A stretch of 64,000 nt of DNA, taken from contig JAHCRF010000001.1 in the NCBI GenBank assembly GCA_020148055.1, forward strand, positions 71,257 to 135,256, read 5' to 3'. Positions 4,516-51,799 of this stretch are shown one piece after another. The stretch is from Patescibacteria group bacterium (GTDB lineage Bacteria; Patescibacteriota; Minisyncoccia; Minisyncoccales; JAHCRE01). The notes beneath the pieces were generated by a model, which was not told the DNA's origin, did not search any database, and saw nothing but the letters and a program-made list of their open reading frames with translations. The position numbers were made by a program, and so were the translations under genes. Every line of letters begins with the position of its first letter. Positions within the stretch are counted from its first letter, which is position 1.

Positions 4516-6711
4516 TTATTCTAAATGGATTCTTTCTCGAAACTTCTCTACTCTTCCCCTTAATAAGGGATATTTTTTTAATTCAGGGTCCTCTTCTAAA
4601 ATTTCTTTAGCCGCCTTTCTAGTTTTCTCAACTAAGAATATATCTTTCAAAGCTGACATTGCTAAATCAGGAATTCCCCATTGTCTTTGACCAAAAAAAT
4701 CACCAGGGCCTCGAATTCCCAAATCTTTTTCAGCTAACTCAAAACCATTTTCAGAAGAAATCAAAGCTTTCAATCGTTGATGAGTTTTCTTAGCTGGAGA
4801 GTCAGTGAATAAAAAGCAAAAAGATTGATATTTTGATCTTCCTACTCTTCCCCGAAATTGATGGAGCTGCGCTAGCCCAAATCTTTCTGCTCCCTCAATC
4901 ATCATTACCGTGGCATTAGGAACATCGATCCCCACTTCAATTACTGAGGTTGAGACTAAAATGTCAATCTTTTTACCCCTTCCGGTTTGTGCAGAAAAAT
5001 GTTTCATTATCTTCTCTTTTTCTTTTGTAGTCATTTTCCCGTGTAACATTCCAACTTTTAAATCAGGGAAAACAATTTTTGATAGTTTTTGATATTCTTC
5101 TTTTACTGCCCTTACCTCAGCCCAGCTTGAAATTTCTTTTTCTATTTTTTCCTTATCACTAGGTTCAATCCTTGGGCAAATAACAAAAACCTGTCTTCCT
5201 TTTTTAACAACAGAGCGTATAAAATTATAAGCAGCCTTACGATTTCCCGGGGCAATCACCTTAGTGACGATTTTTTTCCTTCCCTTCGGCAATTCATTAA
5301 TTAAAGAAAGATCAAGATCACCGTAAATAGTAAGAGCCAAAGTCCTTGGAATTGGGGTAGCGGTCATTGATAATAAATGGGGAATTATTCTTGTTGCTTG
5401 CCCGCCTGCCGGCGAGGCTGGTTGCTGGTTGCTAGTTGCTAACTTTGCCCTTTGTTCCACTCCAAACCGATGCTGCTCATCCAGGATAACCAGAGCCAAT
5501 TTTCCAAAGCGCACTTTTTCTTGAATTAAGGCGTGAGTACCAATTAAAAGATCAATCTCTTCTTTTTTTAATTTTTCTAAAAGTTTTTCTCGAGAAATTT
5601 TGATAACTTTATTTTTTCTGTCGCCGAAAGCGACTCCCCGGAGGGTTGCTCTTTTAGAAAAAATTCTATTTTCTTTCCCGGTTAAAAGACCAATATTTAA
5701 ATTAAATTTTTTTAAAAGTTTTGAAATCTCCTGAAAATGTTGCTTAGCTAGGATTTCAGTTGGAGCCATAAAAGCCACTTGGAAACCTTGTTTTATTACA
5801 TTTAAAGCAGCTAATACAGCCACCACTGTTTTCCCTGAACCAACATCGCCTTCTAAAAGTCTGTTCATCGGTCTTGGTTTTTCGAGGTCTTTTAGAATCT
5901 GCCAGGCTGATTTTTTTTGGGCATTAGTTAATTTGAAAGGTAAGCTTTTAACAAAATTCTTAATTAACTGGGGATGAAAAGGGATTGGAATTGCTCTTTC
6001 TTTTGAGATTTTTAATTTCTCTCTTAAAACAAAAAGAGAAATAAAAAAAAGCTCCTCAAAAGAAAATCTTTTCTGAGCCTTTTTGGCTAAGGTTAAGGAA
6101 TCTGGGAAATGAATCTGCCAGATAGCTCTTTGGATTGGCAAAATTCGAGAATCTCTAATTACTTTTCCTGGTAGGGGTTCGCGAATTTTCTTTTTAAACT
6201 CAACCAAAAGGGGTCTTAGAATAAATCTTAACCATCTTGAAGACAATCCTTCAGTTTCGGGATAAACAGGGACAATTCTTCCGGTATGAATTAGACTTGT
6301 AGTTTGACTGATTTTCTCATGAGCTGGATTTGATAGATAAAGTCCTTTGTCTCCGAGAGTTATTTTTCCAGCTAAACATAAATTATCTCCTGATTTTAAA
6401 ACTTTTATTAAATAAGGTTGGTTAAACCAGATTACCTTTATTGCTCCTGATTTGTCTTTGACTATTGCCTGGGTTAAAATCATTCTTTTTTTCCAGGTTC
6501 TGATGTTTTCAATTTCTAGAATTTTTACCTTAATACAACAGGTTTCATTAAGTTTTACTTGAGATATCGGAATTATATTTGAAAAATCCTCATAGCGATG
6601 AGGAAAATGATAGAGAAGATCCCTGATTGTCTTTATTCCCAATTTCTTCAACCTCTTTTGGTAGCTGAGACCTACTCGAGGCAGACTCTCAATTGGAGTA
6701 GAAAGATTCAT
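4516..6711 (-). CDS. recG: ATP-dependent DNA helicase RecG
   Basis: Start moved to ATG 6711 (MNLSTPIESLPRVG), below the tRNA. Has DVGSGKT Walker A, LDEQHRFG, MTATPIPRTL and QFRGRVGRS. Contains inserts B and E. Confidence 0.9.
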   Translation of the reverse strand: MNLSTPIESLPRVGLSYQKRLKKLGIKTIRDLLYHFPHRYEDFSNIIPISQVKLNETCCIKVKILEIENIRTWKKRMILTQAIVKDKSGAIKVIWFNQPYLIKVLKSGDNLCLAGKITLGDKGLYLSNPAHEKISQTTSLIHTGRIVPVYPETEGLSSRWLRFILRPLLVEFKKKIREPLPGKVIRDSRILPIQRAIWQIHFPDSLTLAKKAQKRFSFEELFFISLFVLREKLKISKERAIPIPFHPQLIKNFVKSLPFKLTNAQKKSAWQILKDLEKPRPMNRLLEGDVGSGKTVVAVLAALNVIKQGFQVAFMAPTEILAKQHFQEISKLLKKFNLNIGLLTGKENRIFSKRATLRGVAFGDRKNKVIKISREKLLEKLKKEEIDLLIGTHALIQEKVRFGKLALVILDEQHRFGVEQRAKLATSNQQPASPAGGQATRIIPHLLSMTATPIPRTLALTIYGDLDLSLINELPKGRKKIVTKVIAPGNRKAAYNFIRSVVKKGRQVFVICPRIEPSDKEKIEKEISSWAEVRAVKEEYQKLSKIVFPDLKVGMLHGKMTTKEKEKIMKHFSAQTGRGKKIDILVSTSVIEVGIDVPNATVMMIEGAERFGLAQLHQFRGRVGRSKYQSFCFLFTDSPAKKTHQRLKALISSENGFELAEKDLGIRGPGDFFGQRQWGIPDLAMSALKDIFLVEKTRKAAKEILEEDPELKKYPLLRGRVEKFRERIHLE
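5383..5439 (-). repeat. element family B, copy 1 (gcaacNN heptamers + GC hairpin), in frame in recG
   Basis: Sense strand gcaactagcaaccagcaaccagcctcgccggcaggcgggcaagcaacaagaataatt is about 90% identical to 50750-50807. Encodes ATSNQQPASPAGGQATR. Confidence 0.9.
5620..5649 (+). repeat. element family E, copy 1 (gtcgccgaaagcgactcc hairpin), in frame in recG
   Basis: The gtcgc/gcgac stem with its flank resembles 48138-48156 (gtcgccgtaaggcgactcc). Encodes ..TLRGVAFGDRK... Confidence 0.7.
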
Positions 6712-7060: not shown

Positions 7061-7084
7061 AAAAACCGGCGAAGCCGGTTTTTT
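7061..7084. terminator. bidirectional intrinsic terminator (aaaaa-ccggc-gaa-gccgg-tttttt)
   Basis: 5-bp GC stem flanked by an A-run and a T-run, between the tRNA-Ser pair (+) and comF (-). Confidence 0.7.
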
Positions 7085-7115
7085 ATTCCTAATTCTGGAT
7101 TCATAATTCTTAATT
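7081..7115. repeat. five-heptamer half-element (ttttatt cctaatt ctggatt cataatt cttaatt)
   Basis: Direct reading. Same unit family as the right arm at 37476-37510. Abuts the terminator hairpin. Confidence 0.7.
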
Positions 7116-16161: not shown

Positions 16162-16962
16162 ATGGAGTTGGTTTCCTTTTTCTCTCTTTTTATTTTCCTT
16201 TTTGGATTAGCAGTAGGTAGTTTTTTAAATTCAATAATTCACCGCTTACATACCGGCGAAAGTTTTCTATTTACTCATTCCTATTGTCCTCATTGTAAGC
16301 ACAAATTAAGCTGGCAAGATTTAATTCCTATTTTGAGTTTTCTAATTTTAAAAGGAAAATGCCGATATTGTAAAAAAAAGGTGTCCTTGCAATATCCCTT
16401 GGTTGAGTCAGCAACTGGAATTTTATTTATTTTAACTACCCATTACACACTACTTACTATAAGCTACGAAAGTTTACTGTTTACTGTTTACTGTTTACTG
16501 TTAAGTTGTTTCTTAATAATAATTTTCGTTTACGATTTAAAACACTATATTATTCCGGATAAAATAATTTATCCTGCAATAGGCATTGCCTTTATCTATA
16601 ATATTCTTTATTCATACTTCATAATTCATAATTCCTATTTCCTTGTAAATAGTTTATTAGCAGCCTTTACTGGAGGCCTCTCTTTTCTTTTTATTTTTCT
16701 CCTTTCGGGTGGCAAATGGATGGGTTTTGGTGATGTTAAGTTAGTTTTCTTTATGGGTCTTTTTTTGAGTTTTCCAGATATTTTGGTTGCTCTGTTTTTA
16801 GCCTTTTTAGTTGGTGCTATAATAGGGATAGGGTTGATTTCGGCTGGTAAAAAAACTCTTAAGAGTGAAGTTCCTTTTGGCCCTTTTCTGGTGACAGGAG
16901 CCTTTATCGCTTTCTGTTTCGGAAATCAAATAGTAAATTGGTATTTAAAAATTTTAAGATGA
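16162..16962 (+). CDS. pilD: prepilin peptidase PilD (A24 family) with N-terminal Cys4 domain
   Basis: CPHC...CRYC, multiple TMs and the GFGDVKL catalytic Asp context. TATAAT lies 6 nt upstream of the ATG. Carries two heptamer arrays. Confidence 0.85.
   Translation: MELVSFFSLFIFLFGLAVGSFLNSIIHRLHTGESFLFTHSYCPHCKHKLSWQDLIPILSFLILKGKCRYCKKKVSLQYPLVESATGILFILTTHYTLLTISYESLLFTVYCLLLSCFLIIIFVYDLKHYIIPDKIIYPAIGIAFIYNILYSYFIIHNSYFLVNSLLAAFTGGLSFLFIFLLSGGKWMGFGDVKLVFFMGLFLSFPDILVALFLAFLVGAIIGIGLISAGKKTLKSEVPFGPFLVTGAFIAFCFGNQIVNWYLKILR
16472..16506. repeat. five-heptamer array (gtttact x4 + gttaagt) inside pilD
   Basis: Direct reading. Encodes ..LLFTVYCLLLSC... Confidence 0.8.
16607..16641. repeat. 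five-heptamer array (tttattc atacttc ataattc ataattc ctatttc) inside pilD
   Basis: Contains the 18-mer attcatacttcataattc, which is identical to part of the rpoB-rpoC spacer arm (30522-30556). Confidence 0.8.
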
Positions 16963-27177: not shown

Positions 27178-30100
27178 ATGAAGTTTAAAGATTTTTCAAA
27201 ATCAAAAATTTCCCTACCCTTACCTTATTTACTCTCGATTCAAAGAGAAAGCTGGCAGAGATTTTGGGAAAGAGATTTAAAAGAACTCTTTTCAGAAATA
27301 TCGCCCATTCAAGATTATACCGGAAAGGAGTTAGAACTCTGGTTTTTAGACTATAAATTGGATGAGCCCAAATATAAAACTACCTTGGAAGCTAAGGAGA
27401 ATAATGATTCTTATGAAGCAGCCTTGCGGGCTAGAGTAAGATTAGTCAATCTCAAAACAAAAGAAATTAAAGAACAAGAAGTCTTTTTAACCGATTTCCC
27501 CTTAATGACCAAGAGAGGAACTTTTATTGTTAACGGGATAGAAAGAGTAGTTATTTCTCAGCTTATTCGTTCCCCCGGCGCCTTTTTTACTTCTCAGATA
27601 ATTAGAGGTGAAACTCATTTTGGAGCAAAAATTATTCCTAATCGGGGAGCTTGGCTTGAATTTGGAACTGAAGCCTCCGGTTTTATTGGAGTTAAGATTG
27701 ACCGAAAGAGAAAAGTAGCAGCTACTACTTTATTGAGAGCTTTCGGAATTGATCAAGATGAAAAAATTCTAGAGATCTTCCAAGATATTGATAACAATCC
27801 AGAAATTAACTATATTTCAGAGACAATAAAAAGAGACCCTACTAAAAATCAAGCCGAAGCCTTAATTGAAGTCTATCAGCATCTAAGACCAGGAGATTTA
27901 ACAACCGCTGAGACAGCTAGAGAGTTGATTGAAAACATGTTTTTTAATTTTGAAAGATATGATTTGTCAAAAGTAGGGAGATGGCGAATGTGGCAGAGAC
28001 TACCGGAATTGAAAAAATCCAAAATCCAAAAGGGGCCCACGAAAGTGGGAGGGCGGTCGGGACGCGAGGCCTTCCCGCGGAACGGGAGGCCCCGTCCTTG
28101 GGTGGGTTGGAGTCCAAAATCCAAAACTAAAAAGCCAAAGCTAGAAGAAGGAATCACCAGGTCAGATAGGGTTTTGCATCCCGAAGATATTGTGGCTGTT
28201 TTGAGAGAGATTATTAGATTAAATAATGACCCCGGGGGAAAACCCGATCAGATTGATCATTTGGGCAATCGGCGAGTAAGAACTTTAAATGAACTTTTAC
28301 AAAACCGATTAAGGGTAGGTTTAATGAGAATGGCCAGGATTATCAAAGACCGAATGGCTACTTTAGATATTTCCATCTTAACCCCGGTTCAATTGATTAA
28401 TTCCCGACCATTTATAGCGATAGTTAGGGAATTCTTTACCTCTTCTCAGCTTGCTCAGTTTATGGACAATGAGAATCCTCTTGCTGAATTAGAGCATAAA
28501 AGAAGACTATCAGCTACCGGACCAGGTGGTTTAACTCGAGAAAGAGCTGGGTTTGAGGTTAGAGATGTTCAACCATCCCATTATGGAAGGATTTGCCCTA
28601 TCCAAACTCCTGAAGGACCAAATGTTGGGTTAATTAATCATTTAGCTGGTTTTGCCCGAGTTAATCCTTATGGTTTTATTGAAACTCCTTATTTCAAGGT
28701 GAAAAATGGAAGGGTTACTTCAGAAATTTGTTATCTTAATGCCTATGAAGAAGAAAAGTATAATATTGCCCATGGAGGAGTACCAATCGATGAGAAAGGC
28801 AAAATTACCTCCAAAAAGGTTGAAGCTAGAGTAAAGGGTGAACCAGGAATAGTTGGTAGAGAAAAAGTTGATTTTTTCGACATCTCTCCTGCCCAATCAA
28901 TTTCTATCGCTACTTCTTGCATTCCTTTTTTACAAAATGATGATGCCAACCGAGCCTTAATGGGATCAAATATGCAAAGACAAGCTGTTCCTCTTCTCAG
29001 ACCAGGGGTTCCCCTAGTTATTACTGGAGCAGAAGAGAAGGTAGCTAGAGATTCTGGCCAGGAGATAATTGCCGAGGAAGAAGGGGTTGTTACCGAAGTC
29101 GATGCTAATCATATTAAAATTAGGGGTAAAAAGGGAGAAAAGAAATATCCTCTGCAAACTTTTATTCAGACCAATCAATTCACTTGTTTTCATCAAAGCC
29201 CCTTAGTTAAAAAAGGGAAGGTTGTTAAAAAAGGAGACATTTTAACTGATGGTGGAGGAATTTCTCAAGAACATTTAGCTTTAGGCCGAAATATTTTGGT
29301 TGCTTTTATGTCCTGGCGTGGAGGAACTTTTGAAGATGCAATTTTGATTTCTGAAAGATTGGTTAGAGATGATGCTTATACTTCAATTCATATTGAGGAT
29401 TTTAGTTGTGATGTTCGAGAAACCAAATTGGGACCGGAGATTACAACCTGTGATATTCCTAACGTTTCAGAAGAAAAATTGAGGAATTTAGATGAAGAAG
29501 GTTTAGTCAGAATTGGGGCTGAAGTTGGCCCAAATGATATCTTGGTTGGGAAGATTTCTCCAAAAGGAGAAGTTGATTTAACTGCTGAGGAAAGATTATT
29601 GAGAGCTATTTTTGGAGAGAAAGCTAGAGAAGTTAAAGATACCTCTTTATTAATGGAGCATGGTAAACAGGGGAGGGTAATTAATGTGAAGATTTTTTCT
29701 AGAGAATCGGGTCATAGACTTGACCCCGGAGTGATAAAAAGAATTGATGTTAAAGTAGCGGAGATTAGAAAAACTCAAGCCGGTGATAAATTAGCTGGTC
29801 GCCATGGGAATAAGGGAGTGATTTCTAAGGTTTTACCAATTGAAGATATGCCATTTTTAGAAGATGGAACTCCAGTCGATATTATTTTAAATCCTCTAAG
29901 CATTGCCTCGCGAATGAATATTGGTCAAGTTCTGGAAGCTCATTTAGGAAAAGCGGCCAAAAAATTGGGCTACATTGCTATTTCTCCGGCCTTAGCTGGA
30001 GTGACTGAGGAAGAGATTAAAGAAGAGCTTAGGAAGGCTGGATTACCAGAAGATGGAAAAGTCGCTCTTTATGATGGCCGAACCGGCCTACCTTTTTCCA

Positions 30101-30480
30101 AAAAAATTACTGTTGGCTATGTTTATATGATGAAATTAATTCATATGGTTACCGATAAAATCCACGCCAGATCAATTGGACCTTATTCTCTAATTACTCA
30201 ACAGCCCTTAGGAGGAAAGGCCCAATTTGGAGGTCAAAGATTCGGAGAAATGGAAGTTTGGGCTTTAGAAGGACATGGAGCAGCCCATAGTTTACAGGAA
30301 ATGTTAACTATTAAATCCGATGATGTCCAAGGTCGGGCAGCTGCTTATCAGGCCATCTTAAAAGGAGAGCCAATCAGAAATCCTAATGTTCCCGCGTCTT
30401 TAAATTTACTAATCAATGAATTAAAGGCTCTTGGGCTAAATGTTGAAATAAAAGAAAACCCCAAAGAACAAGAATCCTGA
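27178..30480 (+). CDS. rpoB: DNA-directed RNA polymerase beta subunit
   Basis: 1100 aa with canonical beta motifs (GRHGNKGV, FGEMEVWALE). Carries a 123-nt repeat insert at 28014-28136. Confidence 0.97.
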   Translation: MKFKDFSKSKISLPLPYLLSIQRESWQRFWERDLKELFSEISPIQDYTGKELELWFLDYKLDEPKYKTTLEAKENNDSYEAALRARVRLVNLKTKEIKEQEVFLTDFPLMTKRGTFIVNGIERVVISQLIRSPGAFFTSQIIRGETHFGAKIIPNRGAWLEFGTEASGFIGVKIDRKRKVAATTLLRAFGIDQDEKILEIFQDIDNNPEINYISETIKRDPTKNQAEALIEVYQHLRPGDLTTAETARELIENMFFNFERYDLSKVGRWRMWQRLPELKKSKIQKGPTKVGGRSGREAFPRNGRPRPWVGWSPKSKTKKPKLEEGITRSDRVLHPEDIVAVLREIIRLNNDPGGKPDQIDHLGNRRVRTLNELLQNRLRVGLMRMARIIKDRMATLDISILTPVQLINSRPFIAIVREFFTSSQLAQFMDNENPLAELEHKRRLSATGPGGLTRERAGFEVRDVQPSHYGRICPIQTPEGPNVGLINHLAGFARVNPYGFIETPYFKVKNGRVTSEICYLNAYEEEKYNIAHGGVPIDEKGKITSKKVEARVKGEPGIVGREKVDFFDISPAQSISIATSCIPFLQNDDANRALMGSNMQRQAVPLLRPGVPLVITGAEEKVARDSGQEIIAEEEGVVTEVDANHIKIRGKKGEKKYPLQTFIQTNQFTCFHQSPLVKKGKVVKKGDILTDGGGISQEHLALGRNILVAFMSWRGGTFEDAILISERLVRDDAYTSIHIEDFSCDVRETKLGPEITTCDIPNVSEEKLRNLDEEGLVRIGAEVGPNDILVGKISPKGEVDLTAEERLLRAIFGEKAREVKDTSLLMEHGKQGRVINVKIFSRESGHRLDPGVIKRIDVKVAEIRKTQAGDKLAGRHGNKGVISKVLPIEDMPFLEDGTPVDIILNPLSIASRMNIGQVLEAHLGKAAKKLGYIAISPALAGVTEEEIKEELRKAGLPEDGKVALYDGRTGLPFSKKITVGYVYMMKLIHMVTDKIHARSIGPYSLITQQPLGGKAQFGGQRFGEMEVWALEGHGAAHSLQEMLTIKSDDVQGRAAAYQAILKGEPIRNPNVPASLNLLINELKALGLNVEIKENPKEQES
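28014..28136 (+). repeat. nested insert in rpoB: 'aaaatcc' heptamer array interrupted by element A
   Basis: aaaatcc aaaatcc aaaa[84-nt A]aaaatcc aaaacta aaaagcc. The total of 123 nt equals 41 codons. Confidence 0.8.
28032..28115 (+). repeat. GC-rich hairpin element family A, copy 2 (in frame in rpoB, sense)
   Basis: 84 nt, about 87% identical to 1463-1547. Encodes ..GPTKVGGRSGREAFPRNGRPRPWVGWSP... Confidence 0.9.
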
Positions 30481-30556
30481 ATTATGAATTAGGAATCAAG
30501 AATAAAAAATAAGAAATAAAAATTCATAATTCATACTTCATAATTCGTAATTCTGA
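30476..30556. repeat. composite palindrome in the rpoB-rpoC spacer: 5x7 'NNNgaat' array, 11-nt core, 5x7 'attcNNN' array
   Basis: cctgaat tatgaat taggaat caagaat aaaaaat / attcata attcata cttcata attcgta attctga. The left arm overlaps the rpoB stop codon. Confidence 0.8.
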
Positions 30557-30560
30557 TATT

Positions 30561-33500
30561 ATGAGAGTAGCTGATCTTAAATCAATAAAAATTCGCTTAG
30601 CCTCACCAGAAGAAATTTTATCTTGGTCTCATGGCGAGATTACTAAACCTGAAACCATCAATTATCGAACTCAAAGAGCAGAAAAGGACGGTCTTTTTTG
30701 TGAAAGAATTTTCGGGCCAACTAAAGATTATCAATGCTATTGCGGTAAATATAAAAGAATTCGTTATAAAGGGATAACTTGCGATCGCTGTGGGGTAGAA
30801 GTGACAAAATCTTCGGTCAGACGAGAGAGGATGGGTCATATCAAATTGGCCTCACCGGTTTCTCATATTTGGTTCTTAAGAGGAGTACCGTCGCGAATGG
30901 GAATAATCTTAAATGTTTCTTTACCCAAATTGGAAAGGGTAATTTATTTTGCTGCTTACATTATCACAGAAGTTATAGAGGAGGCTAAGAAAAGAGTTTT
31001 AAAAGAGATTGAGAAAGAATACAGGTCAAAGGTAAAAACTCAAAAAGCTTCCCCAGCCCCACCCGCCACCCATCAAAGGAAAAAAACATCTAAGGCAAAA
31101 ACAAAAAGTAAAAATAAAATAAAACCCCAAGACCTGAAAGTAGCCAGAGATAAAGCTAAAGAGGAAGTGTTAGCTTTGAAACCTTTGAAAATTCTTTCTG
31201 AGGTGGAATATCACAATCTTTCTTTTAAATATGGAGAGGTTTTTACAGCGGGAACAGGAGCAGAAACTCTAAGGAAAATTTTTGAGAAGATAGATTTTAA
31301 AAAAGAAATTACCAAATTAAAAAAAGAAATTGAAAAAGCCTCACCGGTGAGTCGAAGAAAAATTTTAAGGAGATTGAAACTCTTCCAGTCGATGTCTAAC
31401 GCAAAACTGAGACCAGAGTGGATGTTTCTGAATGTTTTGCCGATTTTACCCCCAGATTTAAGACCAATGGTTCAGTTAGATGGTGGTCGTTATGCTTCCT
31501 CTGATTTAAATGATCTTTATAGAAGAGTAATTAATCGGAACAACCGTTTGAAATATCTTTTAGAAATTGCAGCTCCTGAAGTTATTGTTAGAAATGAGAA
31601 AAGAATGTTGCAGGAAGCAGTTGATGCTCTGATCGATAATGGAATGAGAAAGGGAGTAATTACCAGGGCGACCACTGGAGGAAGAAGGCTTTTGAAATCT
31701 TTAGCTGATATGTTGAAAGGAAAACAAGGGAGATTCAGGCAAAATCTTTTAGGTAAAAGAGTTGATTATTCGGGCAGATCGGTGATTGTCGTTGGACCAA
31801 AATTAAGACTTCATCAGTGTGGTCTTCCTAAAAAGATGGCCTTGGAATTATTTAAACCTTTTGTTATTAAAAGAATTTTAGATAAAGAATTGGCTTACAA
31901 TGTAAGGGCAGCTTCGAGGTTGATTGAGCAGGAAACCGAGGAAGTTTGGGCAATCTTAGAAGAAGTGGTTAAAGATAAATTGGTTTTATTAAATCGGGCT
32001 CCAACCTTACATCGATTAGGAATCCAGGCTTTCCAACTAATATTAATTGAGGGAGAAGCAATTCAAGTCCATCCTTTAGTTTGTAAAGCCTTTAATGCCG
32101 ATTTTGATGGGGATCAAATGGCTATCCATTTACCTTTATCAACTGAGGCCCAAAAAGAGGCTAAAGAAATAATGTTATCTACCTTAAATCTTTTGAAACC
32201 AGCCACTGGTATTCCAATTGTAACTCCTACTCAAGATATTATCCTTGGCTGCTATTTTTTAACCAAAATTAAAGAGAAAGCTAAAGGGGAAGGGAAGATC
32301 TTTGGAAATTTCCAAGAGACCGTTTTAGCTTATGAGTTTGGAGAGGTAGACTTAAAAGCCGGAATCAAGGTTAAAATAAAGAATTCGGAATTTTTAGAGA
32401 CTTCGGTTGGGCGAATTATTTTTAATGAGACTTTACCCGCAGGCTTCCGGTTTATTAATGAAGTGATAAATTCAAAGAAATTAGAAAAAGTGATAAGTGA
32501 AATTATTGAAAATTACGGAATAGAAAGATCGGTTGCTACCCTGGATAAAATTAAAGATTTGGGATTTGAATATGCCACTATTTCAGGTTTATCCTGGGGA
32601 ATGGATGATTTAGATATTCCTAAAGAAAAAGAAGAATTAATTAAAGGGGCAGAAACAGAAATAGAGATGATCGAAGAACACTTCAAAAAAGGGTTACTGA
32701 CTGAGGAAGAAAAATATCTAAAGACAATTGAAATTTGGCAAAAAATAAAATCAAAAATTGAAAAAATTGTTCCGAAGACATTACCATCTGAGAGTTCAGC
32801 ATTTTCAATTGTTGATTCCGGAGCGAAAGGCTCCTGGATCCAACCTGTGCAGATGTGTGGAATGAAGGGTTTAGTGATTAATCCAATGGGACAGATTATT
32901 GAACTTCCAATCAAAAGTTCTTATAAAGAAGGATTTAATGTTTTGGAATATTTCATTTCTACCCATGGAGCAAGAAAAGGAACAGTTGATACGGCTCTAC
33001 GTACCTCTACTGCTGGCTACTTAACCAGAAGACTTATTGATGTCGCCCATGAGGCAGTAATAACTGAGGAAGATTGTCATGACGAGAAAGGGATTGAAAT
33101 ATCCAGAGGGGATGCTGAAGAAATTGGCCAGAATTTTATCTTCAAGATTTTAGGGAGAGTAGTTATAGAAGATGTCAGAAATCCCGCCAGAGGCGAGGCT
33201 CGCCAAGGGCGGCAAAAAGCAAAAAGCAAAATTATCAAAAAAGGAGAAATAATTGATTGGAAAGCGGCTGAGGAAATAATTAAAGCTGGGGTTGAAAAAG
33301 TTCGAGTTCGTTCTCCCTTAACTTGTAAGTCAACCAGAGGAATTTGCCAGAAATGCTATGGCTGGGATTTAGGCTCAAATCAATTAGTTAAATTAGGGGA
33401 AGCGATGGGGATTGTTGCTGCCCAGGCGATTGGCGAGCCGGGAACTCAATTAACGATGAGAACTTTTCATACCGGTGGCGTGGCTGGAGGAGAAGATATA

Positions 33501-34205
33501 ACATTTGGATTACCGAGGGTTGAGGAAATTTTCGAAGCCAGAACATTAACTGAGAAAGGAGCAATTTCTCAAGCTGATGGAAAAGTGACTGAAATAACAA
33601 AAGAAAGGGTGATTAAAGTGAAACCTAAAAAGGGAAATCCTCGGCCAAAGAAAAAAGAGATTTTAGAATACAAAATTTCTCCCCGAATGGCTATTTGGGT
33701 TAAACCGGGCCAAGAGGTTAAGAAAGGTCAACAGCTCTCAGAAGGAAGATTGGATCTGAAGGAGCTATTTAAGCTTAGAGATAAAGAAGAAACCCAGAGA
33801 TATATTATTAAAGAAATTCAGAGAATCTATGTTTCCCAGGGAGCAATTATTCATGATAAGCATCTTGAGGTAATTGTTCGCCAAATGTTTTCCCGGCTAA
33901 GAATCCAAGAAGCAGGTGACAGCAATTTTGTTCCCGGCCAAATTATTGAAAGATCAAGATTTTTAGAAGGAAATAAAGTTTTAAGAAAGGAAAAGAAAAA
34001 GCAGGCTAAAGGAACGCCCATTTTGCTCGGAATGTCCCGAGTGGCTTTAACCGCGGATTCATTTTTATCAGCTGCTTCTTTTCAGGAGACTACTCGAGTT
34101 CTAATTAAAGCTGCTATCGAGGGGAAAGAAGATAGACTTGAAGGTTTAAAGGAAAATGTGATTATTGGAAAGTTGATTCCAGCCGGTACCGGTTTTCAAA
34201 AATAG
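30561..34205 (+). CDS. rpoC: DNA-directed RNA polymerase beta' subunit
   Basis: 1214 aa. Has the zinc-binding CYCGKY..CDRCG and the NADFDGDQM catalytic motif. Carries element C and a hairpin plus array insert. Confidence 0.97.
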   Translation: MRVADLKSIKIRLASPEEILSWSHGEITKPETINYRTQRAEKDGLFCERIFGPTKDYQCYCGKYKRIRYKGITCDRCGVEVTKSSVRRERMGHIKLASPVSHIWFLRGVPSRMGIILNVSLPKLERVIYFAAYIITEVIEEAKKRVLKEIEKEYRSKVKTQKASPAPPATHQRKKTSKAKTKSKNKIKPQDLKVARDKAKEEVLALKPLKILSEVEYHNLSFKYGEVFTAGTGAETLRKIFEKIDFKKEITKLKKEIEKASPVSRRKILRRLKLFQSMSNAKLRPEWMFLNVLPILPPDLRPMVQLDGGRYASSDLNDLYRRVINRNNRLKYLLEIAAPEVIVRNEKRMLQEAVDALIDNGMRKGVITRATTGGRRLLKSLADMLKGKQGRFRQNLLGKRVDYSGRSVIVVGPKLRLHQCGLPKKMALELFKPFVIKRILDKELAYNVRAASRLIEQETEEVWAILEEVVKDKLVLLNRAPTLHRLGIQAFQLILIEGEAIQVHPLVCKAFNADFDGDQMAIHLPLSTEAQKEAKEIMLSTLNLLKPATGIPIVTPTQDIILGCYFLTKIKEKAKGEGKIFGNFQETVLAYEFGEVDLKAGIKVKIKNSEFLETSVGRIIFNETLPAGFRFINEVINSKKLEKVISEIIENYGIERSVATLDKIKDLGFEYATISGLSWGMDDLDIPKEKEELIKGAETEIEMIEEHFKKGLLTEEEKYLKTIEIWQKIKSKIEKIVPKTLPSESSAFSIVDSGAKGSWIQPVQMCGMKGLVINPMGQIIELPIKSSYKEGFNVLEYFISTHGARKGTVDTALRTSTAGYLTRRLIDVAHEAVITEEDCHDEKGIEISRGDAEEIGQNFIFKILGRVVIEDVRNPARGEARQGRQKAKSKIIKKGEIIDWKAAEEIIKAGVEKVRVRSPLTCKSTRGICQKCYGWDLGSNQLVKLGEAMGIVAAQAIGEPGTQLTMRTFHTGGVAGGEDITFGLPRVEEIFEARTLTEKGAISQADGKVTEITKERVIKVKPKKGNPRPKKKEILEYKISPRMAIWVKPGQEVKKGQQLSEGRLDLKELFKLRDKEETQRYIIKEIQRIYVSQGAIIHDKHLEVIVRQMFSRLRIQEAGDSNFVPGQIIERSRFLEGNKVLRKEKKKQAKGTPILLGMSRVALTADSFLSAASFQETTRVLIKAAIEGKEDRLEGLKENVIIGKLIPAGTGFQK
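31037..31101 (+). repeat. element family C, copy 1 (C-rich 65-mer), in frame in rpoC
   Basis: Identical over 65 nt to 49629-49693. Encodes [21 protein letters not shown]. Confidence 0.95.
33184..33247 (+). repeat. GC nested hairpin (ccgcc-aga-ggcga-ggc-tcgcc-aag-ggcgg) followed by a 'caaaaag' heptamer array, in frame in rpoC
   Basis: Direct reading. Encodes ..PARGEARQGRQKAKSKIIKKG... The array family matches the uvrC array at 47531-47565 in reverse complement. Confidence 0.75.
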
Positions 34206-36402: not shown

Positions 36403-37401
36403 ATGGCAAGACAGAAGAAAGAAAAAAAACTTGAAAAAAAGGATTTAGAAGGGGCAATAACCGAAATTAAACAGCGCTTCGGTGAAGGGTCAATCATGAA
36501 ATTAAAAGAAACCCGGCCAGTTGATGTTGATGTAATTCCTACTGGTTCAATTTCTTTAAATCTGGCTTTAGGAGTAGAAGGAATACCTCGGGGTAGAGTG
36601 ATTGAAGTTTTCGGACCAGAGGGAGGAGGAAAAACAACTTTGGCGCTTCATATTTTAGCTGAGGTTCAAAAAAGAGGAGGGGTGGCAGCTTTTGTTGATG
36701 CCGAGCATGCTTTAGATCCTGATTGGGCAAAAAGAATTGGAGTAAACGTCGATGATCTTTTAATTTCTCAACCCGATTCTGGAGAACAGGCATTAGAGAT
36801 CGTTGAGACTTTAGTTAGATCGGGCCAAATTGATGCTATAGTGATCGATTCAGTTGCTGCTTTGACCCCCCAAGCTGAAATTGAAGGCGAGATGGGAGAA
36901 TTTCAGATTGGCCTTCAGGCTCGTTTGATGTCGCAATGTTTACGAAAATTGTCGGGAATTGTTTCTAAAACTAAGACCTCGGTTATCTTTTTGAATCAGA
37001 CCAGGATGAAAATTGGTATTCGCTTTGGAAATCCTGAGACCACTCCTGGGGGTTTAGCTTTAAAATTTTATTCCTCGGTGAGAATTGCTTTAAGAAGAAT
37101 TGCTCAGATAAAACACGGGGAGGAAATTATCGGCAGTCGAATAAAGGCTAAAATTGTCAAAAATAAAGTAGCCGCTCCTTTTAAAACAGCTGAATTTGAT
37201 ATTTATTATAACGAAGGAATTTCTTATCTGGCCGACATTTTAAATACTGGAATTAAGTTAGAAGTTATTAAGAAAGCCGGAAGCTGGTTGAAATATGAGA
37301 ATATAAAATTAGGACAGGGCTTTGAGGCTAGTAAAAAATTCTTGAAAGAGAATCCAAAAATACTAAAGAAAGTAAAAGAAGCGATTGTAAACCAAGTTTA
37401 A
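36403..37401 (+). CDS. recA: recombinase RecA
   Basis: [12 protein letters not shown], the L1/L2 loop region and NQTRMKIG. Confidence 0.97.
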
Positions 37402-37510
37402 GAATCACGAATCACGAATTATGAATTATGAATAGAATAAAAACGGTAATTCAAAAACTGCCCCCAAGGGCAGTTTTTTATTCTTGATTCCTAATTCCTT
37501 ATTCTATTTA
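37402..37510. repeat. composite palindrome: 5x7 array (gaatcac gaatcac gaattat gaattat gaataga), terminator core, inverted 5x7 array (ttttatt cttgatt cctaatt ccttatt ctattta)
   Basis: Direct reading. Lies between convergent recA and rpsR. The right arm overlaps the rpsR stop. Confidence 0.8.
37453..37479. terminator. bidirectional intrinsic terminator core (aaaaa-ctgccc-ccaa-gggcag-tttttt)
   Basis: 6-bp GC stem, 4-nt loop, flanking A-run and T-run. Confidence 0.8.
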
Positions 37511-47327: not shown

Positions 47328-48803
47328 TTAATTCCTAGTCAACATTTTTTCCTTTCTCAATTTCCTATGATAAGAAATCGCAAATCGGTGAGCCTCGTCA
47401 CGTAATTGCAAAATTAAATTGAAAATTTCTCTTGGTAAGTTTTTCAGAAAAATCGGCCTTTTTCGATTCTCAATGTATAGTTTATTTCCCTTTTTAGCTA
47501 AACTTGCAACTATTATCTTTTTTTTGCTTTTTGCTTTTTGCTTTTTGATTTTGAGGGCAGCGTTAAGTTGCGTGATTCCCCCATCAATTAAGACCAAATC
47601 TGGCCAGCCCCATTCAGGATGTTGCAATCTCCGAGATAAAATTTCTTTTATCATTGCTATATCACTCGGTCTGCCAGAAATCTTGATTTTAAATTTTCGA
47701 TAAAATTCTTTAGCTGCCTGGCCTCTAATAAATGTCACCATGGCACCTACAGCTAATTTTCCAGAAATATTTGAAATATCATAGGCTTCAATTCTTTTTA
47801 TCTTCTTTTCGGTTTTTAAAATTTTCTTTAAAATTTTTTGAATTTGGGGCCAGTCCAAAATTTTTGCCTGCTTGCCAGGATCTGTGACTTCAAGCGCTGG
47901 CAGGCGGGCATTAAGGATTACCTTTTCTAAGGAAAATATTTTATCCCTAATTTTGGCTGCTTTTTCAAAATTTTGCAAATCAGCTGCTCTTTTCATTTCT
48001 TTTTTTAAATTTCTTAAGACCTGATTTCTTTTTCCTTGGAGAATTTTGAGAAGATTTCTGGCGTTCCTTTGACACTCCTTTTTAATTTTTTCTCTTAGCC
48101 CAGGAATTTGAGAACTAAGTTTTGCTCCCCCCCTAGGGTCGCCGTAAGGCGACTCCTTCAGGGATTTTAATAGGCAAGGAGCTGGACAACGACCCAATTG
48201 ATACCAGAGACAAGGTCTTTTTGGCAAGATTTTGCAGGTTCTGTAAGGGAGAGCTTTCCTTAAAATTTTTAGAGTTTGTTTTAAAGCTTTACCATCAACA
48301 AACGGACCAATAAACTGGAATTTAGAATTATGAATTATGAATGATGAATTATAAGGTTTTTTCTTTTTTGTTCTTGATTCTTGATTCCTGACTCTTGATT
48401 CCCAAAATGGTTGGTGGGTCAAGAATACTCTTGGAAAGCCCTCTTTAGCTATTCCAACATAAAAATAATTTTTGTCATCTCGCCAAACAACATTATATTT
48501 TGGTAGAAATTTTTTTATTAAATTTGCCTCCAGAATTAAAGCCTCGATTTCTGAATCAGCTTTGATAAAACCTATTTTTTTGGTTTTATCTAGAAAAATA
48601 CTTTCTTTGAAACCGGGTTGTTGAAAATGATTTTTAACTCGCTTTCGAATATTTGAAGCTTTGCCAATGTATAAAATTTTCCTTTCTTTGAAGCAATAAA
48701 CCCCCGGCTTTTTAGGAAGTTTTTTAACCCCCTCCTTTTTTAAAAATTTAAATTTTTTCACGTTCGGTAATCCGATTTTAACTTGAAATTGATAATTTTT
48801 CAA
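47328..48803 (-). CDS. uvrC: excinuclease ABC subunit C
   Basis: GIY-YIG N-terminus (PGVYCF..ILYIGKA..), UvrBC domain, RNase H-like endonuclease domain and a C-terminal HhH region. Interrupted in frame by four repeat inserts. Confidence 0.9.
   Translation of the reverse strand: MKNYQFQVKIGLPNVKKFKFLKKEGVKKLPKKPGVYCFKERKILYIGKASNIRKRVKNHFQQPGFKESIFLDKTKKIGFIKADSEIEALILEANLIKKFLPKYNVVWRDDKNYFYVGIAKEGFPRVFLTHQPFWESRVRNQESRTKKKKPYNSSFIIHNSKFQFIGPFVDGKALKQTLKILRKALPYRTCKILPKRPCLWYQLGRCPAPCLLKSLKESPYGDPRGGAKLSSQIPGLREKIKKECQRNARNLLKILQGKRNQVLRNLKKEMKRAADLQNFEKAAKIRDKIFSLEKVILNARLPALEVTDPGKQAKILDWPQIQKILKKILKTEKKIKRIEAYDISNISGKLAVGAMVTFIRGQAAKEFYRKFKIKISGRPSDIAMIKEILSRRLQHPEWGWPDLVLIDGGITQLNAALKIKKQKAKSKKKIIVASLAKKGNKLYIENRKRPIFLKNLPREIFNLILQLRDEAHRFAISYHRKLRKEKMLTRN
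47531..47565. repeat. five-heptamer array (tttttgc x3, tttttga, ttttgag) inside uvrC
   Basis: Direct reading. Encodes ..KIKKQKAKSKKKI... Reverse complement of the rpoC array family. Confidence 0.85.
47866..47909 (+). repeat. 13-bp GC hairpin insert in uvrC (gcctgcttgccag-N18-ctggcaggcgggc)
   Basis: Direct reading. Two of the 13 pairs are G:T, which is only tolerated if the plus strand folds. Shares caggcgggca with family B. Confidence 0.65.
48125..48163 (+). repeat. element family E, copy 2 (gtcgcc-gtaa-ggcgac hairpin at 48138-48153), in frame in uvrC
   Basis: Perfect 6-bp stem with a GNRA-type loop. Encodes ..KESPYGDPRGGAK... Related to 5620-5649. Confidence 0.7.
48315..48401. repeat. complete 87-nt composite palindrome ('gaat/attc' family) inserted in frame in uvrC
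   Basis: ctggaat ttagaat tatgaat tatgaat gatgaat, then a 17-nt core, then ttttgtt cttgatt cttgatt cctgact cttgatt. 35+17+35 = 87 nt = 29 codons (..ESRVRNQESRTKKKKPYNSSFIIHNSKFQ..). Confidence 0.85.
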
Positions 48804-48864: not shown

Positions 48865-49698
48865 ATGAAAGAAAAAGTTATTAAAATCCGTGGAGCCAAA
48901 GTTCACAATTTAAAAAATATTAATCTTGATATCCCAAAAAACAAACTGGTAGTGATTACTGGGATTTCAGGTTCAGGAAAATCATCTTTGGCCTTTGATA
49001 CATTATATGCTGAAGGACAAAGAAGATATGTTGAGAGTTTATCTGCTTATGCAAGGCAATTTTTAGGAGTGATGGATAAACCAGAGGTTGACAAAATTGA
49101 AGGAATTTCACCTGCAATTTCAATTGACCAAAGAAAAGCAGCTCACAATCCACGCTCCACTGTTGGAACCATTACTGAAATTGCAGATTACTTAAGATTA
49201 TTATTCGCTAGGATAGGGAAGCCCCATTGTCCAAAATGTAAAAAAACAGTTAGCCGTCAGACCATCGATCAAATTACTGATCAGGTTTTGAAATTGCCAA
49301 AAAGAACAGAAATTTCGATTTTGGGTCCAGTTGTTAGAGGTCGAAAAGGAGAGCATCGGGGAATTTTAGAAGAGATTCAAAGATCAGGATTTATCCGAGT
49401 GAGAATTGATGGGATTTTACACCGAATTGAAGACTACAACCCACCCACCATGTCCTCCCACTCGCTTCGCGAGCGGGCCCCTACTCTAGGGCTGAAGTTA
49501 GACCGAAAGAAAAAACACAATATTGAGGTTGTTGTTGATAGATTAATAATTGATAAAGACTTGGATAGATCAAGGTTGGTTGATTCTCTGGAAACAGGCC
49601 TAAAGTTGGGAAAAGGAATAGTAATAGTAACTCAAAAAGCTTCCCCAGCCCCACCCGCCACCCATCAAAGGAAAAAAACATCTAAGGCAAAAATCTAA
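48865..49698 (+). CDS. uvrA: excinuclease ABC subunit A, N-terminal fragment; the frame ends at TAA inside or just after repeat element C
   Basis: [47 protein letters not shown]... TATAAT (48852-48857) lies 7 nt upstream of the ATG. Confidence 0.85.
49435..49492 (+). repeat. GC-rich insert D in uvrA (hairpin cccactcgc-ttc-gcgagcggg at 49457-49477)
   Basis: GC island encoding ..[19 protein letters not shown].. between conserved RIDG and [13 protein letters not shown]. Shares gcgggcccct with the reverse complement of element A copy 1. Confidence 0.65.
49629..49693 (+). repeat. element family C, copy 2; coincides with the frame break in uvrA
   Basis: Identical over 65 nt to 31037-31101. Confidence 0.95.
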
Positions 49699-51799
49699 TG
49701 ACTTAATATTCAGCGAGTATTTTGCCTGCGAGGAATGTGGGATTTCTCTTCCAGAATTAGAGCCTCGGCTTTTTTCATTTAATTCTCCTTATGGGGCCTG
49801 TTCAGCCTGCCAGGGGCTTGGAGAAAAATTAGAAATCGATCCAAAATCAGTTTTACCCAATCCAAATTTATCGATTTCTGAAGGAGCAATTTTTCCCTGG
49901 GCTCATGCCTCTCATAAAGTTGGCAGGCAGGGTTATTTTTGGTGGCAGTTCACCCACTTGGCAGAAAAGTATAACTTCTCCTTAGATGTCCCGGTTAAAG
50001 AACTTCCCAAAAAGATCATTGATTTAATTTTATATGGTAATGGCCAATTTGAGGGAGTAGTTCCCAATTTGGAAAGGAGATATCACGAAACTGATTCAGA
50101 ATATACCCGTAAGGAAATTGAGCAGTATATGATAAAAAAGAGATGTGAAAAATGTCAGGGAAAAAGATTAAGGCCTGAAGCCTTGGCAGTGACTGTGATA
50201 AAAAAATCAATAAATGAAATCGTTGAAATTTCAATAGAAAAAGAAAAAAGATTTTTCGAGAATTTACTACTAAATCCTAAATCCTATAACCTAAATCCTA
50301 ATGACTACAAAATTGCCCAACCAATTGTTAAGGAAATCATTAAGCGATTACAATTTCTAATTGATGTTGGTTTAGATTATTTAACCTTAGATCGGAAGAC
50401 AGAAACTTTATCGGCTGGGGAAGAGCAGAGAATAAGATTGGCTACTCAGTTAGGTTCTCAATTAACCGGAGTTTTATACATTTTGGATGAACCTTCAATT
50501 GGTCTTCATGCTAGAGATCAGGGTAGGCTCATCGAAACCTTAAATAAGTTAAGGGATTTGGGCAATACCGTTATTGTTGTTGAACATGATCCTCAGACAA
50601 TCATGGCTGCTGACTGGGTGATCGATATAGGGCCAGGAGCGGGGAAACACGGTGGCAAAATTATATTTAAGGGAACACCAAAAGAATTACTGAGATCAAA
50701 GACACTTACTGGAGATTATTTAGCTGGAAGAAAGAAAGTTGAGATAAAAGCAACCAGCAACAAGCAACCTGCCTCGCCGACAGGCGGGCAAGCAACCAAG
50801 AATAATTATCTAATAATAAAGAAAGCGGCTGAGCACAATCTCAAAAATATTGATGTTAAAATTCCTTTGGGAAAATTTGTCTGCATTACTGGAGTTTCGG
50901 GTTCGGGCAAAAGTTCTCTAATGAATGATATTTTAGCTAAAGCCCTGATGAGGAAATTTTACAAAGCCAAAGAGGAACCGGGAGAATTTAAAGAATTAAT
51001 TGGAACAGAATTTTTGGATAAAGTGGTTTTAGTGGATCAGTCTCCAATTGGCCGAACCCCCAGATCAAATCCGGCAACTTATACCGGAGTTTTTTCTTAT
51101 ATCAGAGATCTTTTTTCAAAAACCAGAGAGGCCAGAATTAGGGGGTATCGGCCAGGACGTTTCAGTTTTAATGTTAAGGGAGGAAGATGTGAAGTATGTC
51201 AAGGTCAGGGTCAAATCAAAATCGAGATGTACTTTTTGCCTGATATTTATATTGAGTGCCAGGAATGTAAGGGGAAAAGGTTCAACAAAGAAACCTTGGC
51301 TATTGAATATAAAGGAAAGAATATTGCTGAGGTTTTAGAAATGACAGTTGAAGAAGCCCTAAAATTTTTCATAAATATTCCCGGTATCTATCATAAATTA
51401 AAAACTTTGTATGATGTTGGTTTAGGCTATATTCAATTGGGCCAGCCAGCCCCTTCTTTGTCTGGAGGGGAGGCCCAGAGAGTGAAATTAGCTACTGAAC
51501 TTTCTAAAAGGGCTACGGGAAAGACTTTATATATTTTAGATGAACCAACCACTGGTTTGCATCCCGATGATATTAAAAAATTAGTTTGGGTTTTGAGAAA
51601 TCTGGTAGATAAAGGAAATACGGTTTTATTAACTGAACATAACATCGATATCATCCGCAATTCAGATTGGATAATAGATTTAGGACCGGAAGGTGGAGAT
51701 GAAGGCGGCGATATTATTGCAATAGGTACTCCATTTGAAATTACAAAAAACAAAAAAAGTTATACCGGACACTATTTAAAACAAGTTTTTAAATCTTGA
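49631..51799 (+). CDS. uvrA: excinuclease ABC subunit A, remainder of the gene in the +1 frame (open from 49631; UvrA homology resumes about 49700)
   Basis: [41 protein letters not shown]... and a second ABC module, [10 protein letters not shown]...[12 protein letters not shown]...[12 protein letters not shown]. The track only lists it from 49958. Confidence 0.85.
50271..50305. repeat. five-heptamer array (taaatcc taaatcc tataacc taaatcc taatgac) inside uvrA
   Basis: Direct reading. Encodes ..[15 protein letters not shown]... Confidence 0.85.
50750..50807 (+). repeat. element family B, copy 2, in frame in uvrA
   Basis: gcaaccagcaacaagcaacctgcctcgccgacaggcgggcaagcaaccaagaataatt. Encodes [17 protein letters not shown]. 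Confidence 0.9.

Follow-up and report, generated by a model that had tools for sequence, protein, structure and literature searches.

Rickettsia palindromic elements (RPEs) are short repeats that lie inside conserved protein genes, where they occupy surface linkers, keep the same frame across hosts and have a base composition unlike that of the genome. RecA-independent switching of the template during replication is established in bacteria, and natural inter-genic bacterial examples at a distance of 18.6 kb are, to our knowledge, rarely described. Here we compare both with a 65-nucleotide (nt) repeat found in rpoC and uvrA of a Patescibacteria group bacterium, within a stretch of 64,000 nt that is referred to as a whole as the window. 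Two papers (PMC10969869, PMC2229807) served for comparison with RPEs and with intragenic repeats that resemble miniature transposable elements with inverted repeats (MITEs); for microhomology templated insertions, most documented cases are from yeast, human and cancer genomes (e.g. PMC8421209, PMC11724301).

The repeat has its intragenic linker site, its shared frame and its deviating base composition in common with RPEs and MITE-like repeats. It is unlike them in having two copies, no palindrome or terminal inverted repeats, one disrupted host open reading frame (ORF) and a left end consisting of native host-gene sequence, and also in that no copies were found in the other genomes searched. 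The insertions attributed to break-induced replication mediated by microhomology (MMBIR) or to fork stalling and template switching (FoSTeS), as well as bacterial RecA-independent template switching, resemble it in the donor-identical insert, the unchanged donor and the microhomology of 6-10 nt; MMBIR/FoSTeS-type insertions are also alike in their restoration by precise excision and in lengths free of a multiple-of-three constraint. Known templated insertions are mostly eukaryotic, whereas the present case is from Patescibacteria and its putative mechanism is read from the anatomy of the junctions. The feature is filed here as an instance of this known mutation class and not as a new element. 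We would give an even chance to the specific reading in which uvrA recently received its copy by a templated insertion, primed by microhomology and copied from rpoC by template switching.

The repeat and its two host genes

The 65-mer AACTCAAAAAGCTTCCCCAGCCCCACCCGCCACCCATCAAAGGAAAAAAACATCTAAGGCAAAAA occurs exactly twice in the window, at 31037-31101 and 49629-49693, both times on the plus strand and with 0 mismatches, in agreement with the perfect identity between rpoC and uvrA that an earlier inspection of the DNA (the sequence-only reading) had reported. It is the longest exact repeat of the window, the runner-up measuring 26 nt, and 100 shuffles produced no match. A low-stringency blastn-short search (word size 7) of the window returned only A-rich pieces of at most 17 nt and no third, diverged copy. 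The repeat is composed of AACT, CAAAAA, a 49-nt core (GCTTCCCCAGCCCCACCCGCCACCCATCAAAGGAAAAAAACATCTAAGG) and a second CAAAAA. In the core an A-rich tail comes after a C-rich part, GCTTCCCCAGCCCCACCCGCCACCCATC, and the first 30 nt of the core are 70% GC (guanine plus cytosine) compared to 35% for the genome; the repeat contains an A7 run as well as an A5 run. The window as a whole is 35% GC, so the AT-rich setting had been described correctly. The distance from the rpoC copy to the uvrA copy is 18.6 kb and the two have the same orientation. The features referred to below are the following.

31037-31101, plus strand: copy 1 of the 65-nt repeat, in frame in rpoC, in the Lys-rich hypervariable linker of beta'; probable donor
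31037-31046, plus strand: AACT and CAAAAA, which make up the leftmost 10 nt of the repeat; native rpoC sequence by orthologue comparison
31047-31095, plus strand: 49-nt core in rpoC; extra DNA relative to orthologues
31096-31101, plus strand: terminal CAAAAA of the rpoC copy; a second CAAAAA adjoins it at 31102-31107, as read from the sequence
31051-31071, minus strand: G-quadruplex (G4) motif GGGTGGCGGGTGGGGCTGGGG on the rpoC template strand, from a motif scan and G4Hunter
49629-49693, plus strand: copy 2 of the 65-nt repeat; GKGIVIV and DLIFSE enclose the uvrA linker in which it lies
49633-49638, plus strand: CAAAAA that serves as microhomology at the target in uvrA; the relative P0124 reads AAT CAA AAA at the corresponding site
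49639-49693, plus strand: inferred 55-nt insertion in uvrA (core and one CAAAAA), whose deletion restores a single UvrA ORF
49643-49663, minus strand: copy 2 of the G4 motif, on the uvrA template strand, from a motif scan
48865-49698, plus strand: N-terminal truncated uvrA ORF of 277 amino acids (aa), ending in TAA 3 nt past the repeat
49694-51799, plus strand: rest of uvrA in the +1 frame, open until its stop and with UvrA homology throughout

The gene uvrA was identified by the Pfam domains UvrA_inter and UvrA_DNA-bind. The common frame claimed for the two copies holds insofar as both give the same 21-residue peptide, but in uvrA this frame meets a TAA at 49696-49698, only 3 nt beyond the repeat. 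From 49694 onward the conserved UvrA sequence carries on in the +1 frame, which is open to 51799, and uvrA is accordingly called as two genes (277 aa and 613 aa), with a break that coincides exactly with the 3' edge of the repeat. In-silico deletion of 49639-49693 from uvrA gave one intact ORF of 959 aa, in which the linker reads TQKSN and is orthologue-like (the P0124 counterpart is NQKTKKNN). The frameshift in uvrA arises because 55 nt is not a multiple of 3. As the sequence stands, the uvrA copy is a frameshifting, pseudogenising insertion rather than a harmless in-frame insert, a consequence that the sequence-only reading had overlooked. Re-initiation or another simple rescue of uvrA was considered and rejected, since the sole ATG just past the stop, at 49698, lies in another frame and gives MT*; the first in-frame start for the uvrA remainder is at 49958. 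As far as the orthologue comparison reached, covering only part of the ORFs, uvrA was the sole visibly broken gene noticed in the window.

The UvrA linker at the insertion point is hypervariable, ranging from 0 to about 40 residues in 55 relatives. In the closest UvrA relative (P0124) the linker NQKTKKNN is encoded by AAT CAA AAA ACA AAA AAA AAT AAT, and the empty-site sequence in the uvrA orthologue is AATCAAAAA. Since P0124 has AAT CAA AAA at the junction, the empty uvrA site natively ends in TCAAAAA. From precise excision together with the orthologues we infer that the original uvrA site read ...GTA ACT CAAAAA TCT AAT GAC... (V T Q K S N D), and the predicted empty-site uvrA allele would be GTAACTCAAAAATCTAATGAC.

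In contrast to uvrA, rpoC (30561-34205; Pfam RNA_pol_Rpb1_1 to Rpb1_5) remains a single ORF of 1214 aa, and its product equals NCBI MBZ9578340.1, annotated as from 'Patescibacteria group bacterium'. The repeat sits in the Lys-rich hypervariable beta' linker between EKEYKSKxK and LKxARDRAKEE. At the matching codons the nearest rpoC orthologue, P0001 (L003), reads AAA ACT CAA AAA ACA AAA ATT AAA; because it shares AAA ACT CAA AAA, the 10 nt with which the repeat opens are native to rpoC. The peptide TQK is present at this site in four orthologues, and in three of them it is extended to KTQK. Relative to orthologues, the extra rpoC DNA starts with GCT at 31047; its length varies with the alignment, from 42 to 54 nt. 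Removal of 55 nt from rpoC would shift the frame of a normally essential gene. The same removal mends uvrA but would break rpoC, an asymmetry between the two copies that is in keeping with rpoC as the donor and uvrA as the recipient. The best relatives are Patescibacteria/Parcubacteria proteins, with 78% identity for RpoC and 77% for UvrA, and the protein collection, where all three clusters were singletons, contained no conspecific genome in which an empty-site allele could be sought.

A Parcubacteria relative of RpoC (P0006) carries a Gly/Ser/Pro-rich insert of ~70 aa at the linker position aligned to about 31040-31100 of the window, and as judged by the aligned proteins the beta' linker site appears to be a recurrent insertion hotspot. 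Genes called as split were also seen among the relatives, namely rpoC of P0017 (530 + 669 aa; L004 2001-5593) and uvrA of P0124 (590 + 351 aa; L005 3001-5815), the contig of the latter having a coverage of about 4x.

Origin of the uvrA copy

Homology is found at both junctions of the insert, AACTCAAAAA (10 nt) at the left and CAAAAA (6 nt) at the right. The per-site word frequencies are 2.3e-5 for AACTCAAAAA, 7e-4 for TCAAAAA and 2e-3 for CAAAAA, and the low values for AACTCAAAAA and TCAAAAA indicate that the junction homology is non-random. The insert is identical to its donor in 65 of 65 nt, the donor rpoC is intact, and precise removal restores the recipient uvrA. In the proposed course of events, a nascent DNA end at the CAAAAA of uvrA, exposed at a stalled or broken fork or in a repair intermediate, would pair with the near-identical AACTCAAAAA in rpoC, be extended over the rpoC core up to the next CAAAAA and then use that CAAAAA for the return to uvrA. 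The outcome would be a gain of 55 nt that frameshifts uvrA into the TAA three bases past the insert, while the donor rpoC would stay unchanged and in frame. Speculatively, if the G-rich strand folded as a G4, its C-rich partner in rpoC might be left single-stranded and so be open to use as a template. The sequences themselves show the repeat and its anatomy, the frameshift, the mending of uvrA by excision, the native flanks in orthologues and the agreement of two assemblies; that copying ran from rpoC to uvrA, that a template switch took place and that the G4 had any part in it is inferred. That the copies are perfectly identical and that uvrA, 2.9 kb long, is otherwise intact points to a very recent insertion; the suggestion of very recent copying made in the sequence-only reading finds further support in the microhomology-bounded unit and in the restoration of uvrA on removal.

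Some observations weigh against a templated insertion from rpoC. Only a single event is seen, and as the search for copies within the source genome covered the window, a third, master copy is possible elsewhere in the genome. The copied unit nearly equals the extra rpoC DNA (42-54 nt), as would be expected if a cassette had entered both genes independently, and both empty sites are natively A(C/A)TCAAAAA, which could mean target specificity and not homology to rpoC. In addition, a spacing of 18.6 kb is long for simple replication slippage, and the true insertion could be an in-frame one of 54 nt, with the additional A of the A5 run due to a separate slip or an error.

Further copies and signs of mobility were sought in several ways. 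With the 29-mer core, 0 matches were obtained in 185,579 GTDB species genomes and in JGI metagenomes. The 20-mer core gave 11 genome matches and 1 viral match (IMG/VR), at loci of 56-74% GC and without flank similarity; these are chance matches. A peptide census, for which five reading-frame translations were joined with stops omitted, yielded 14 word-sharing candidates, none with E <= 10, but it was a weak census as the window RpoC itself missed the threshold. Rfam gave no match for the repeat at the gathering threshold or at E <= 1. Neither strand of the repeat was predicted to form a hairpin, folding being weaker than in shuffles (z +1.2 to +1.6), and no inverted-repeat pair was reported within it. 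Of the features that mark MITEs and RPEs, palindrome, hairpin and terminal inverted repeats are all missing here, and the host ORF is kept open in rpoC and broken in uvrA. No transposase, integrase or reverse transcriptase was found in the window ORFs scanned. A diversity-generating retroelement (DGR), a transposon and an IS200/605-type palindrome-associated transposable element were each tried as candidates and rejected, there being no reverse transcriptase or transposase, no A-specific mismatches and no subterminal hairpins. A tRNA-derived origin of the C-rich core was likewise rejected, as the geometry of the T-arm, acceptor and CCA does not fit when judged by eye and ARAGORN finds no tRNA there. 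A literature search on GC-rich intragenic inserts in Patescibacteria found nothing.

These results bear on the possibility, which we consider somewhat unlikely, that the repeat is a mobile mini-cassette, that is, a small non-autonomous element that enters TCAAAAA-type sites in Lys-linker coding DNA and has its master copy elsewhere. The repeat would then represent a third family beside two GC-rich intragenic families of the window, A (tsaD/rpoB) and B (recG/uvrA), and be comparable to RPEs. That the core is missing from orthologues at both sites, that both empty sites share the A(C/A)TCAAAAA sequence, that CAAAAA direct repeats flank the unit like a target-site duplication and that conserved genes here hold other repeated GC-rich inserts, among them the uvrA copy of family B as a 42-nt insert between 9-nt direct repeats AAGCAACCA, would all be accounted for in this way. 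However, the CAAAAA on either side of the core belongs, in the two copies alike, to native linker sequence of low complexity; there are only 2 copies in 64 kb, no transposase is nearby, and the genome, metagenome and peptide searches returned no further significant match. The repeat also lacks the hairpins of families A and B, and the increments are unequal (about 54 nt in rpoC and 55 nt in uvrA), which misfits a single element obeying a target-site-duplication rule. The label 'element' used in the sequence-only reading is for these reasons unsupported: the repeat has only two copies, neither a hairpin nor terminal repeats, and no copy in the collections searched, and it looks like a one-off copying accident with no proven mobile element. 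A DGR template/variable repeat pair, or selection for a common functional peptide, is an exceedingly improbable source. Patescibacteria, or Candidate Phyla Radiation (CPR), genomes are rich in DGRs, and the repeat is A-rich and has the same frame in both genes, yet both features expected of a template/variable pair fail here: the copies are 100% identical, with 0 differences and hence none specific to adenine, and no reverse transcriptase domain is present in the ORFs scanned. A shared functional peptide is contradicted by the uvrA copy, which destroys its gene, and by the identity at synonymous positions, which excludes convergence.

The remaining explanations concern the frameshift and the reality of the uvrA copy. 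Poly(A) tracts in AT-rich genomes are prone to slippage, and the A7 and A5 runs within the repeat are such slippage-prone sites. It is conceivable, but in our judgement quite unlikely, that 54 nt (18 codons) were transferred in frame, be it by template switching or as a mobile cassette, and that a separate change from A4 to A5, by slippage or as a consensus error, followed, in which case uvrA is perhaps intact or rescued by transcriptional slippage. Removal of a single A from uvrA indeed gives an intact UvrA of 977 aa that keeps the full inserted peptide, and 54 nt is the length of the extra rpoC DNA under one alignment. Against this stands that the extra A equals the next base of rpoC, hence the identity of 65 nt and not 64. 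Moreover, as the window holds 913 A or T runs of at least 5, an unrelated slip exactly at the junction is improbable, and the insertion and the frameshift were probably one event. Illumina consensus errors are also rare at an A5 run, and two assemblies agree here. The existence of the latter follows from the records: the ENA scaffold_298 has 36,086 nt and the window begins 29.6 kb upstream of its start, while the window RpoC is on record from a 137,397-nt NCBI contig, so that at least two assemblies must have been made. These have different contig boundaries and are identical over the shared 34.3 kb, both copies and the split uvrA included. The BioSample falls under PRJNA599172, from Costa Rica Margin subseafloor sediment, for which Illumina NextSeq 2x150 reads were assembled by Megahit at k 27-117 and also by SPAdes (PMC9723726). 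In a de Bruijn assembly, junction homologies of 10 + 6 nt that are shorter than k mean that the junction k-mers must occur in the reads. We accordingly regard it as very unlikely that, as the sequence-only reading had also suggested, the assembly or library produced one of the copies (likeliest that of uvrA) and that it is absent from the organism. The source is a metagenome-assembled genome, perfect identity combined with a frameshift in a conserved gene is a classic warning sign, and rpoC and uvrA of relatives are often called split too in low-coverage assemblies; but here the uvrA sequence is correct on either side of the 55-nt insert, unlike in chimeric joins, no junction repeat reaches k-1, the feature is not confined to a single assembly, and excision gives a perfect ORF just as it would after a biological insertion.

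On the likeliest reading, a templated insertion from rpoC, the locus offers a clean natural bacterial case in which donor, recipient, empty site and consequence are all legible from the sequence. The consequence for the cell is the loss of an intact uvrA ORF, and UV-damage repair is presumably under weak selection in the subseafloor sediment habitat. It also calls for caution in annotation, since what would pass for an in-frame repeat in two conserved genes is actually a pseudogenising insertion. Should such events be recurrent, they would provide a mechanism for the spread of GC-rich peptide inserts among conserved genes of AT-rich CPR genomes, and would connect the choice of donor in template switching, in a testable way, with DNA that forms G4s or hairpins. 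An extended version, which we consider doubtful, holds that the repeat is the youngest product of a transposase-independent spread of GC-rich 'linker cassettes' between housekeeping genes, primed on short A-rich repeats (CAAAAA, TCCAAAA, AAGCAACCA). G4- or hairpin-forming cores could then aid copying by exposing single-stranded donor DNA, and families A and B would represent older copies, which owe their survival to having stayed in frame. The borders of family B, with the direct repeat AAGCAACCA and a flank, AAGAATAATT, that is read in different frames, give a hint of such recurrent gene-to-gene copying. If true, this process could explain many odd loop insertions in conserved CPR proteins.

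The G-quadruplex motif

The complement of 31051-31071 and of 49643-49663 has four tracts of at least three G, separated by loops of 4, 1 and 2 nt. The canonical four-tract G4 motif that had been claimed for the template strand is thus present, as a motif, in both genes. Neither strand of the window has any other G3+N1-7 x4 motif, the expected number being 0.025 per mononucleotide shuffle. G4Hunter, proposed in the sequence-only reading as a check, scored the motif at 2.48, above about 1.5, and gave -2.12 for the 25-nt scanning window, the most extreme value of the whole stretch. In the G-quadruplex model of ViennaRNA, which uses RNA parameters, the G4 had an energy of -14.5 kcal/mol compared to -2.2 kcal/mol for the best hairpin, and the motif is predicted by these models to fold as a G4. 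It is like bacterial coding-region G4 motifs in its canonical four G3+ tracts, its template-strand position and its high G4Hunter score. It differs from them in that it came with a duplicated segment and is not conserved in orthologues. As judged by this comparison the motif is most probably a passenger of the duplicated segment, and a regulatory role is unsupported.

Other inserts and neighbouring regions of the window

The upstream proteins of the window include RpoB, a TPR protein and LigA. Family A is a GC-rich repeat of 85 nt at 1464-1548 and 28032-28116, with 85% identity between the copies. The former lies near the 3' end of tsaD and antisense to it, whereas the copy in rpoB is in sense orientation, encodes GPTKVGGRSGREAFPRNGRPRPWVGWSP and lies between copies of AAATCCAAAA. 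The family folds as a long hairpin, and the differences between the copies are mostly changes from G-C to G-U. Family B is found at 5393-5440 (recG, minus strand) and 50749-50796 (uvrA), with 92% identity; the 87-91% previously given for the two families was therefore roughly right. Both copies of family B encode ATSNxQPASPxGGQAT, and the uvrA copy is an in-frame insert with the 9-nt direct repeat at its borders. After a 1-nt indel the copies share the A-rich 3' flank, which encodes RII in RecG and KNN in UvrA. The family B core has a hairpin z of -2.35, and at this linker of UvrA the relatives P0195 and P0201 have much longer GC-type inserts (SLRSGQAP...).

Compared to the 65-nt repeat, families A and B are alike in lying in hypervariable linkers of housekeeping genes, in having short A-rich direct repeats at their borders and, for family B, in a shared flank. 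They differ in being 85-92% identical and so older, in forming hairpins, in leaving the host ORFs open and, for family A, in occurring in both orientations, whereas the copies of the 65-nt repeat are 100% identical, unstructured and break uvrA.

A third GC-rich insert of uvrA, at 49432-49513, encodes 18 residues and contains the palindrome CCCACTCGCTTCGCGAGCGGG. A different insert, rich in Pro, Ser and Arg (LPHLPPRPSSRGSAIE), occupies this site in P0121, P0122 and P0128; most relatives lack one. In rpoC, a GC-rich hairpin insert at 33180-33240 (CCCGCCAGAGGCGAGGCTCGCCAAGGGCGG, encoding NPARGEARQGRQ) is followed by a tandem (CAAAAAG)x3. An array of the heptamer CAAAAAG is also found in uvrC, at 47517-47547 on the opposite strand, and repeats of this type repeatedly adjoin GC-rich inserts in the window.

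Degenerate heptamer arrays (GAATTAT, GAATCAC, or the complement ATTCATA) are present at 2685-2784, 7075-7109, 16600-16647, 30461-30553, 37391-37510 and 48307-48394. They occupy several intergenic regions and at least one in-ORF stretch, in both orientations and often as facing pairs at gene boundaries. Finally, a segment of 125 nt with 58% GC at 63222-63346, downstream of the last glycogen-synthase-like gene, matched no Rfam family. Its fold z scores are -3.3 and -3.1 on the two strands, and on the basis of this predicted folding it may be an undescribed structured RNA.

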